Part shown: positions 9,634 to 12,600 of the stretch, in pieces
How the letters are laid out: every line of letters starts with the position of its first letter
Position numbering within the stretch: the stretch's first letter is position 1
Assembly: GCA_030747675.1 (NCBI GenBank)
Contig: JASLKH010000084.1
Coordinates: forward strand, 1-20,733
From: Candidatus Thalassarchaeaceae archaeon
GTDB taxonomy: Archaea; Thermoplasmatota; Poseidoniia; Poseidoniales; Thalassarchaeaceae
Direction of reading: 5' to 3'
DNA: 20,733 nucleotides
Made by a program: the position numbers and the translations under genes
The notes under the pieces: model-generated
What the model was told of the DNA's origin: nothing
The model's input: only the letters and a program-made list of their open reading frames with translations
Databases searched by the model: none

Positions 9634-12600
9634 CACTGACCACCTCCAAGTACATCATCAAGGATCTGCTCGACATTAATCGGCTCTCCCTTCATCGAAC
9701 GGCAAGGATCTACTCCATCTTCACCATAACTAAATTGAATAATACGGTTAGCAGTATTACGAACTGATTTTTTGTCGTCTTTCCAGACCTTCAAATCATC
9801 CATAGCGTTGATTAAACGACGCTGCATGTAACCTGATTTACTTGTCCGAACAGCCGTATCAACTAAAGATTCACGACCTGAAACGGATAGCATAAAGAAT
9901 TCTGTAGGCTCTAATCCACGTTTAAATGAAGACGCGACGAATCCTTTTTCTTTTGCTCCTTTCGCACCACGACGGAAGTGTGAAAGAACCCGATTGTGGT
10001 AACCTCGTTCCAATCTCTTACCACGTACCTTTGGTTGACCGATTGAACCTGCCATCATTGCAAGGTTGTCCATTGAACCACGAGCTCCAGAAACTGCCAT
10101 CATCACAGCAGGATTGTCATCAGCAAGGTGATCTTTAGCCACGTTACCAGTTTCTGCCTTACACTGATCTAGAAGTTGCAAAATATTCTCCTCAAGGGTT
10201 TCAATTGGAGTTCGTCCAGGACGAGTTTCATATCTACGGCCGTCGGTTCCGAATTTTTCAAGTTCTGCATCTACAGCCGCACTTGCTTCCTCATTTATCT
10301 TCTTGATAAGATCACGTGCTTCGGCTGGAAGATCTTCGTCATCTATTCCTGTAGTGAAACCTAGGGCTGTACAAATTCCAATTGTTAATTTCGTCATTTG
10401 ATTCAAGAAATTTGCTCCAACTTCTGTCCCATGCGTCTGAACTACTGCATCAAGCAAGCGACCGTCCTCTGCTCCAATTGCCCTCTTGTCGAGAGTACCA
10501 CTGGAAACATTTCCTCCATGAATTACAACTTCATCTTGACTTCTACTTGTATATCGGAGTGAAAATCCATCTGGGATAATTAAACTGAATAAGTCTAATC
10601 CGTAATATCCAGATACACCATCGAGTTTCTTTTCTTCAGGTAATTCACCAGACCATCCAATCTGACCCAGTACGTCTAAAGCAATACTTTTCGGGATGAA
10701 TCGGTTGTTGTGTGTCAACAGATATGCACCCGAAATGTGATCGTGTATACCACCAATCACGGAGCCACCATATCGTGGAGTGATGATATGTTCCTGAACC
10801 CTCATCAAAATTTTGGCTTCAGCTCGAGCCTCCTCCGACTGTATGACGTGCAAGTTCATTTCATCTCCATCGAAGTCAGCGTTGTAAGGGGTGCAAACTG
10901 CTAAGTTGAAGCGGAAGGTCTTACCTTCCATCACCCTAACCTCATGAACCATCATAGACATCCGGTGTAATGACGGTTGTCGATTGAAAATCGATACATC
11001 GCCATCAATCAAGTGGCGTTCAACAATCATGCCCGGCCTTGGATTGCCTTCCAAATCAATGGTCGACAACCTATCTTCAACTTTAGAGCGGATTCCTTCT
11101 TCAACCTCAGGACTACCGCAGTGTGGACATCGAACTTGAAGTTCTGTAGGGAAATCTTGGCTGAGATTTTCTTGTTCCCATACCCACCTCTGATGAATAA
11201 TCGCCCTAGGATCTCCTTGATCTAGCGGTTTACCGCTGGAATCTTCACCACGGAGGTTTGCAATAGTAGCCTCTAGCTTTGAAACCCAGCGATCCATTGT
11301 TTCCCCTGTGGACAAGCGCACTGTTTCCGCTTCAATTTCCATTCCTGGCAAGAAATTGGGGGCTGGTAAAATTTCATTCAAATCAGGTCGTAATCCGGGA
11401 TACGGTTCTCCGCGCTCAGGGTCACCTGAATGACATTCAGGGTTATGGCATCGGAATCCAGACCACATCAACTTCGTGCGATCAGTAATTCGCACTCGGA
11501 GAGAATCACCACGAATGATATAATTTACACCTGGATGAACATCAGGGCCACGTAGAATCATTTGTCGCAATTGTTCCCGATTTCGCGTTGTGACTCGAAT
11601 TGGCACTGTCAATTCTTTTGCACATTGTACTGGGACGCCCACTTGATTAATGCTCAAATTTGGATCCGGACTGATTACTGTTCGTGCGCAGAAGTTAACT
11701 CGCTTTCCTGAAAGGTTGCTTCGGAAACGACCTTCCTTGCCCTTTAGTCTCTGCGTTAATGTCTTCAATGGACGACCAGAACGGTGTCTTGCAGGAGGGA
11801 TTCCTGCTGTTTGATTATCAAAATATGTAGTTACGTGATATTGTAAAAGTTCCCACAAATCCTCCACGATTAGTTGCGGAGCTCCTGCGTCTCGATTCTC
11901 TCGAAGCCGTTGATTAATCCGTAAAACATCCACTAGTTTGTGGGTGAGATCATCCTCACTTCTATCGCCACTATCCAATGTGATTGATGGACGCACTGTA
12001 ATTGGTGGAACTGGTAATACACGCATAATCACCCATTCTGGTCGACTTGAAGCGTAATCCATACCAAGGAAAATTAGATCCTCATCTGGTACACCTTCAA
12101 GGTGTTCACGAATATCCCTGGCATTCAGTTTGTGTTCGCCCTTATCTTGTTTCTTCTCTTTGAATGTTGTTGGTTTGTCTAAAACAATCTTCCCCTGCTC
12201 ATTTCCACAATGCATGCATACTGCACGCTTCACTCCAGAGCATATTTTCTCAACTTCTTTGATGGTCTTGCTGAATTCTGTTGAACCAACCCCATGTTTT
12301 ACGATAACATCGTTGATTCTATCTCGATAATAATCCTGCTCAGACTTCGCTTCGTCAGTAGGGTGAGTTCCTTCACGCTCATGTAACAATATTCTACTAC
12401 ATGTGTTACATGTTGATTTGAGAGTTGTCTTGATCAAATTGGTGAATCCAATGTGAATCACTGGCAACTCAAGTTGTATGTGGCCAAAGTGACTCGGGCA
12501 TTTATCGTGCTTGTTCCCACATGTTTCACAACGGACACCAGGTTCAATTACTCCCATCCTTGAATCCATCAAACCCTGCCTAAAGGCATGGCCATCGTCT

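Follow-up and report, generated by a model that had tools for sequence, protein, structure and literature searches.

Why does the largest RNA polymerase (RNAP) subunit of a planktonic archaeon carry some 135 extra residues in a loop that is short in other archaea and in yeast? We address this question for Rpo1N (A'), the product of rpoA1 in a 20,733-nt stretch of Candidatus Thalassarchaeaceae archaeon DNA (contig JASLKH010000084.1, assembly GCA_030747675.1), referred to here as the window. The order of the window, taken from the names of its database relatives, is that of Thalassarchaeaceae, i.e. Marine Group II (MGII) or Poseidoniales. Archaeal RNAP is usually regarded as uniform save for subunit splits. 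Here an abundant planktonic lineage has a large conserved domain, an orphan in the fold searches described below, on what would be the surface that recruits TFB and releases RNA. A preliminary description of the window, made from its sequence, had placed a zinc-finger-like insertion in the dock region of this subunit; we follow it up with comparative, structural and literature analyses.

The insert is defined by comparison with polymerases of known structure. All five Rpb1 Pfam domains are recognised in Rpo1N, and its top PDB sequence matches are archaeal Rpo1N chains with E about 1e-286 (phmmer). The same loop spans 146 residues in this protein, 10 in Pyrococcus, 15 in Sulfolobus and 13 in yeast Rpb1, a net extra length of about 131-137 residues. 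In the phmmer alignment to Pyrococcus furiosus Rpo1N, query residue 415 pairs with 398 and query residue 563 with 409, leaving 147 residues here and 10 there. The corresponding pairs are 410 with 387 and 562 with 403 for Sulfolobus solfataricus, and 409 with 415 and 563 with 429 for yeast Rpb1. The phmmer alignment breaks at one and the same point in every PDB comparison, and the Pfam RNA_pol_Rpb1_2 match on Rpo1N is split at profile positions about 77-86. The preliminary description had counted about 145 residues between the flanking blocks, set this against a canonical spacing of about 10-15 and given positions for the CHNPEC and CPHC motifs, and on each of these points our counts agree with it.

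The insert is in frame and free of stops, with a GC content (0.48) that nearly matches the remainder of rpoA1 (0.44). Conserved dock strands border it on either side, the NRQPSLH and NADFDGD blocks follow downstream, and the dock strands and the catalytic centre of Rpo1N are unaltered by it. The site is equivalent to Rpb1 about 416-428 and to residues 543-576 of A190, the largest subunit of yeast Pol I, where phmmer leaves 34 residues between the two blocks that flank the MGII insert. Within the A190 dock domain, residues 549-573 are the alpha12a region specific to Pol I (PMC4947174). Since this A190 segment shares its flanking blocks with the MGII insert and is published as dock, the MGII insert lies in the dock, as had been proposed.

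The insert is a property of the order. Used alone as a query, it matches at least 298 proteins of about 1030 residues, some of them labelled Thalassarchaeaceae or as a 'Euryarchaeota archaeon' metagenome-assembled genome. At the level of whole genomes, it is found in 40 of 41 close relatives, the exception being a genome that is 72% complete. Families f1 and f3 of the order contribute 56 genomes, of which 55 carry it, as do both genomes of f2. The insert was not found in 24 genomes of f4 and f5, sister families within the class, nor in about 120 further members of the phylum; among 151 genomes sampled from the phylum, every carrier found belongs to the order. PF00623 serves as an independent test: among 121 sampled genomes, the 22 from MGII all show its match broken at profile positions about 77-86, and the match is uninterrupted in the non-MGII genomes, with few exceptions (two genomes with smaller insertions elsewhere, two truncated matches and one partial second copy). 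A single gain at the base of the order, followed by retention, is the most parsimonious history, because the insert is order-wide and was not found in the sister families or the rest of the phylum. In frame, clade-restricted and not found in sister clades, it is a lineage-specific insertion domain of archaeal RNAP. Its near order-wide occurrence rules out a one-genome artefact, which the preliminary description had named as a possible refutation. The wider scope suggested there, MGII and MGIII, stands for MGII; sister-family genomes of the same class are without the insert, and their Rpo1N has the canonical short linker of about 9 residues, NWEFNLERLEPG (alignment A4), which with its flanks reads TDEN-WEFNLERLEPG-FIVERH. 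The insert is a clean order-level molecular signature, and a caution for Rpo1N-based phylogenies and homology models.

Insertions in the dock also occur elsewhere in the phylum. Two other Thermoplasmatota genomes, both from family f7, have unrelated dock insertions of about 65 and 35 residues; these lie one loop earlier, between RG-P and PGVNY in alignment A4 (L055, G192:C1:307320-308030; L056, G142:C5:30000-30614). The dock seems to be a hot spot of lineage-specific insertions in Thermoplasmatota.

Conservation within the insert is strong and extends beyond the cysteines. Alignment A2 comprises 46 sequences from all sampled genera, and 25 insert columns are invariant in it. These include G421, R423, C424, N426, C429, A453-P-N-F456, P458, G459, T485 and N488 in the first part of the domain, and G491, R511, W512, L527, C531-P-H-C534, R550, L551 and D555 further on. 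The four cysteines C424, C429, C531 and C534 are invariant in the 46 aligned sequences and present in 120 of 120 database relatives, in which the two pairs are 99-102 residues apart; the survey of their conservation proposed in the preliminary description thus came out in its favour. The segment VEDRLSTID, on the return path to the core, may on sequence grounds be the counterpart of the canonical short linker. Within the genus, nonsynonymous divergence (dN) is 0.16-0.24 for the insert and 0.05-0.10 elsewhere in Rpo1N; saturation of synonymous sites even at this distance leaves dN as the one comparable measure. With dN at this level while synonymous sites are saturated, the insert is clearly under purifying selection.

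Structure prediction treats the insert as a domain of its own. AlphaFold2 models the insert alone with a predicted local distance difference test score (pLDDT) of 90.3 and a predicted template modelling score of 0.79, and in a model that includes the dock flanks residues 416-555 have a pLDDT of about 90. The insert is therefore confidently predicted to fold as an autonomous alpha/beta domain. The predicted secondary structure consists of a short strand at the first cysteine knuckle, a helix, a long beta-hairpin (residues 462-480), helices at 482-489 and 504-517, and short strands around and past the second knuckle; DSSP on the model places short strands next to both knuckles.

None of the searches returned a usable relative. 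Foldseek searches of two models against the PDB and one search against BFVD gave nothing at E <= 0.001, and VIA-align of two models against 48,161 chains reached a best Z of 2.0-2.1. In the ESM Atlas, searching by shape returned RNAP clusters alone, with template modelling scores of at most 0.40, and searching by features gave a best score of 0.76, below the level of a lead. A profile hidden Markov model of the insert, run against 1.84 billion cluster representatives, gave 26 matches; we inspected two long and ten short ones, all of which are MGII Rpo1N or frameshifted or truncated fragments, and there was no stand-alone or foreign copy among them. Because neither the fold searches nor the profile search gave a usable relative, the insert is an orphan in sequence and, within these searches, in fold.

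The four cysteines are arranged as in a C4 zinc ribbon, in two invariant knuckles. Pfam zinc-ribbon matches on the insert fall on the second knuckle and stay below cut-off (E 0.003-0.1); the best curated profile, PF23451, scores 17.7 bits against a cut-off of 27 and covers the second knuckle only. The most economical reading is one structural zinc, given the CPxCG form of the second knuckle, the full invariance of the cysteines and their position at the entry and exit of the module. C424 and C429 together with C531 and C534 thus most likely bind a single structural zinc at the base of the module, to judge by the sequence pattern. The invariance fits the single zinc site that had been suggested earlier, with the metal itself a matter of inference from that pattern. 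With 99-102 residues between the knuckles, the element can be no more than a split ribbon or a zinc clasp.

The insert is also strongly acidic, with a net charge of -12 in this genome and between -10 and -21 across orthologues (median -15, isoelectric point about 4.5), while the remainder of Rpo1N stands at +2. This acidity argues against direct binding of RNA or DNA and favours a protein-binding or electrostatically repulsive surface. Coordinates of the insert, its motifs, its flanks and other genes of the window are collected in Table 1.

Table 1. Positions in the window of the Rpo1N insert, its conserved elements and flanks, and other genes discussed in the text
Feature	Positions	Strand	Residues and description	Basis
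rpoA1 (Rpo1N, A')	9633-12719	minus	1028 aa; host of the insert	ORF listing, Pfam Rpb1 domains 1-5, PDB matches
N-terminal flanking dock strands	11472-11525	minus	aa 399-416; canonical	Aligned to P. furiosus until 398, yeast Rpb1 until 415
Insertion domain	11034-11471	minus	aa 417-562, 146 aa; lineage-specific, acidic, predicted alpha/beta module	Gap in PDB alignments
First Cys pair, CHNPEC	11433-11450	minus	C424-x4-C429, inside invariant G-F-R-C-x-N-x-x-C	46/46 aligned, 120/120 database matches
Motif LPAPNFLPG	11343-11369	minus	aa 451-459	A453, P454, N455, F456, P458, G459 invariant in A2
Motif T-x-x-N-L-x-G-E-D	11241-11267	minus	aa 485-493	T485, N488, G491 invariant; L489, E492, D493 >= 90%
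Predicted helix with HQRWVW	11178-11195	minus	Invariant R511-W512	Conservation; helix at model residues 88-101
Second Cys pair, CPHCGSP	11109-11129	minus	C531-x2-C534; CPxCG-type zinc knuckle	CPHC (11118-11129) in 120/120
Return segment VEDRLSTID	11055-11081	minus	aa 547-555	R550, L551, D555 invariant
C-terminal flanking strand	10998-11033	minus	aa 563-574; canonical	Aligned from P. furiosus 409, yeast Rpb1 429, A190 577
Catalytic NADFDGD motif	10863-10883	minus	aa 613-619; intact, 51 residues past the insert	Translation
RpoA2	8062-9636	minus	524 aa	
RpoB	12716-16435	minus	1239 aa	
RpoH	16419-17030	minus	203 aa	
Methyltransferase/ligase ORF	17345-18781	plus	478 aa	

What is known of the dock suggests what such a module might do. 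The dock binds the TFB zinc ribbon (PMC7289017; PMC10881513). Nascent RNA passes along it (PMC7111264), and the Pol II dock forms the SPT5 KOW5 pocket and RNA exit tunnel (PMC12119854). The closest positional precedent is alpha12a of A190, which contacts the initiation factor Rrn3 and leaves the ribbon cavity free (PMC4947174; PMC4947163). Like the MGII insert, it is a lineage-specific expansion of this same loop beside the cavity that receives a TFIIB-like ribbon. It adds only about 20 residues (a helix and a loop) compared with about 135 in MGII, however, has no Cys4 site and shows no sequence or fold relationship to the MGII insert; its factor-binding role is demonstrated, whereas that of the MGII insert is conjectural.

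Other built-in domains and ribbons are more distant comparisons. Bacterial beta/beta' insertions (SI1-SI3, BEAN, HABAS or SBHM) are likewise autonomous, sit in surface loops of the two large subunits, are clade-specific, follow phylogeny and leave the catalytic core untouched (PMC11515920). They occupy other sites and have recurrent known folds, whereas the MGII insert is archaeal, lies in the dock, would be clasped by four cysteines and has no detected relative. That survey names no archaeal lineage-specific insert of the MGII type (PMC11515920), and our literature search found no description of the MGII Rpo1N insert. The 'dock II' of human RPA1 is also a domain confined to one clade that forms part of the largest subunit and has been proposed to serve as a platform for factors, but it is a eukaryotic truncated HMG box, a known fold, located in the foot (PMC9438803). 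The C4 ribbons of TFB/TFIIB, Rpo12, Spt4 and TFS share with the insert four cysteines in two knuckles, the second of CPxCG type, and the insert adjoins the docking site of the TFB/TFIIB B-ribbon; its own knuckles, unlike those of the ribbons, have about 100 residues between them and bracket a separate domain, and its Pfam ribbon scores are below cut-offs.

We favour, with about as much doubt as confidence, the reading that the insert serves as a built-in platform, clasped by zinc, on which proteins dock next to the TFB ribbon site and the RNA exit. About 135 extra residues would leave the tip of the Rpo1N dock loop and fold as an autonomous alpha/beta module; the chain would return through the second knuckle, and the four cysteines would hold one structural zinc at the base. 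This would put an acidic module on the side of the polymerase that accepts the TFB zinc ribbon and borders the RNA exit, where the platform might modulate recruitment or release of an initiation factor or exit-channel factor rather than bind nucleic acid. The reading follows from the acidity of the module, its position on the TFB-ribbon and RNA-exit face, and its place in the same loop as the Rrn3-binding alpha12a of Pol I. Several points weigh against it. No partner of the insert was found. We infer that the four cysteines meet, that the module is exposed to solvent and how it is oriented relative to the B-ribbon site. The parallel with Pol I is one of position, an analogy without homology. 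The TFB1 ribbon is itself acidic, which disfavours simple electrostatic attraction to the insert. Finally, the protein sequence of the insert changes 2-3 times faster than the core, which also fits a less constrained decoration.

The last point leads to an explanation that we consider unlikely but deserving of attention: constructive-neutral decoration, in which a stably folded surface add-on became entrenched because it touches the core, and has neither a dedicated partner nor a part in regulation. The lack of any relative, known fold or partner in our searches agrees with it, as do the faster change of the insert, further lineage-specific additions on the same RNAP, and a dock that tolerates insertions, to judge by the unrelated ones that other Thermoplasmatota carry one loop earlier. 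Retention without exception over two or three families speaks against neutrality, the invariant non-cysteine motifs (APNFxPG, TxxNLxGED and RW) exceed what a zinc clasp needs, and the strong conserved acidity suggests a selected surface property. Unlikely, too, is a role in elongation and termination rather than initiation, as an exit-channel or coupling module that steers nascent RNA by electrostatic repulsion or docks basic machinery at the exit channel. Such machinery could be the Spt5 KOW domain, the termination factor FttA/aCPSF1 or, in transcription-translation coupling, the small ribosomal subunit. In favour of this, the dock lines the RNA exit and forms the KOW5 pocket in Pol II, an acidic surface suits basic partners, and the MGII Spt5 frame is unusually long, with an extra N-terminal part of 170 residues. 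Direct RNA binding is nevertheless improbable at the net charge of the insert, which counts equally against the guidance of nascent RNA entertained in the preliminary description, and the NGN and KOW domains of Spt5 are normal, with nothing obviously missing for the insert to replace.

The remaining alternatives fare worse. The preliminary description had raised mimicry of the B-ribbon, in which the Cys4 element would occupy the TFB ribbon site and auto-inhibit the enzyme or substitute for a degenerate ribbon. A ribbon-like pattern of four cysteines next to the ribbon docking site and the sub-threshold Pfam match on the second knuckle (E 0.003) lend this some appeal, yet we hold it to be very improbable: both TFB paralogues retain canonical C4 ribbons free of insertions or deletions, so that the altered ribbons looked for were not found, TFB1 is under strong constraint, no zinc-ribbon factor appeared in any fold search, and knuckles about 100 residues apart clasp a larger domain than the compact ribbon of about 35 residues. 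A redox- or metal-sensing switch would tune global transcription through reversible oxidation of the cysteine pairs or loss of zinc. MGII archaea live in sunlit, oxic water, the cysteines are invariant together with the histidine of CPHC, and CPHC is the tetrad of the DsbA active site. CPxCG is, however, the ordinary archaeal zinc-knuckle consensus, and no thioredoxin-fold protein appeared in any fold search of the insert, so such a switch is also highly unlikely. An intein, mobile element or assembly artefact has a negligible chance of being right, and these readings are refuted by the distribution and the profile search. The junctions TDRTK|LMWSG and GNPRP|GMIVE are without intein terminal signatures and there is no Hint or intein Pfam match, as the preliminary description had already noted in denying intein hallmarks. 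The insert is in frame at one site in MGII genomes and the database proteins, its composition matches that of the host gene, and the profile matches inspected include no copy in any other protein.

The genome encodes two TFBs, TFB1 (309 residues) and TFB2 (358 residues), both with canonical CxxC...CxxCG ribbons. TFB1 is 96% identical between MGII families, which indicates strong constraint. Its ribbon reads RDETRGE in MGII and RDYxRGE in the sister lineage, a substitution seen in few sequences and a lead at most. TFB2 has a basic N-terminal tail of about 55 residues ahead of the ribbon (L041:721-1797, G000 contig C59). TFB2 orthologues with 54-61% identity occur in both MGII families checked, and three sister-lineage genomes gave TFB1-type matches alone, at 32-36%. 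This co-distribution of TFB2 and the insert is weak, coming from one clade and few genomes; TFB2 is a candidate for a partner that co-evolves with the acidic insert. A complex prediction of the insert (A2) with the TFB1 B-ribbon (A3) scored 0.00 and 0.00 against a mark of 0.32; no controls were folded, and the result speaks neither for nor against binding.

In this genome, Spt5 lies in a 331-residue open frame (L059:982-1977, G000 contig C14), with 306-318 residues in two other MGII genomes, and the sister-lineage reading frame has 217 residues (open frame 265). The NGN domain occupies residues 174-235 and the KOW domain residues 276-307; the about 170 preceding residues have no Pfam match and are either a real fusion or the product of an internal start codon. 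We also considered whether the insert replaces a lost zinc-ribbon subunit or KOW domain, and rejected this as unlikely because Rpo12, Spt5 NGN and KOW and two TFB ribbons are all present. A bolder version of the docking-platform reading, in our view a long shot, makes the insert a factor-like module encoded in cis, the archaeal equivalent of the 'built-in transcription factors' known from Pol I and Pol III. It would have co-evolved with the MGII-specific TFB2 or the enlarged Spt5, and would let the polymerase itself switch between two modes of initiation, or equip it with a new clamp at the exit channel, of previously unseen fold. Should the insert bind a factor, archaea would have evolved, independently, a parallel to the Rrn3-binding dock element of Pol I, and the rewiring of initiation or termination in an uncultivated group would become testable.

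The dock insert is accompanied by additions to RpoH, RpoA2, RpoB and Spt5. RpoH has an N-terminal extension of about 100 residues ahead of its Rpb5_C domain (residues 102-199), and RpoA2 starts with a module of about 45 residues that resembles it (VVKSxTKKxLxxxGVxEExAHxLADD). The RpoA2 module looks helix-hairpin-helix-like. An Arg-rich linker comes next in each of the two proteins, and neither module has a Pfam match. In RpoB, Pfam Rpb2_5 extends over residues 642-752 for a 66-position profile, implying an insert of about 45 residues, and the Rpb1_5 match of RpoA2 covers residues 90-469 for 213 profile positions, implying about 165 extra residues. Going by these domain matches, the whole MGII core enzyme is decorated, beyond the dock. 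Adjoining the RNAP operon on the opposite strand is an unusual fusion, an open reading frame (ORF) that combines an N-terminal S-adenosylmethionine (SAM)-methyltransferase region (PrmA/MTS-like, residues 51-143) with a C-terminal biotin/lipoate ligase family domain (residues 241-374).

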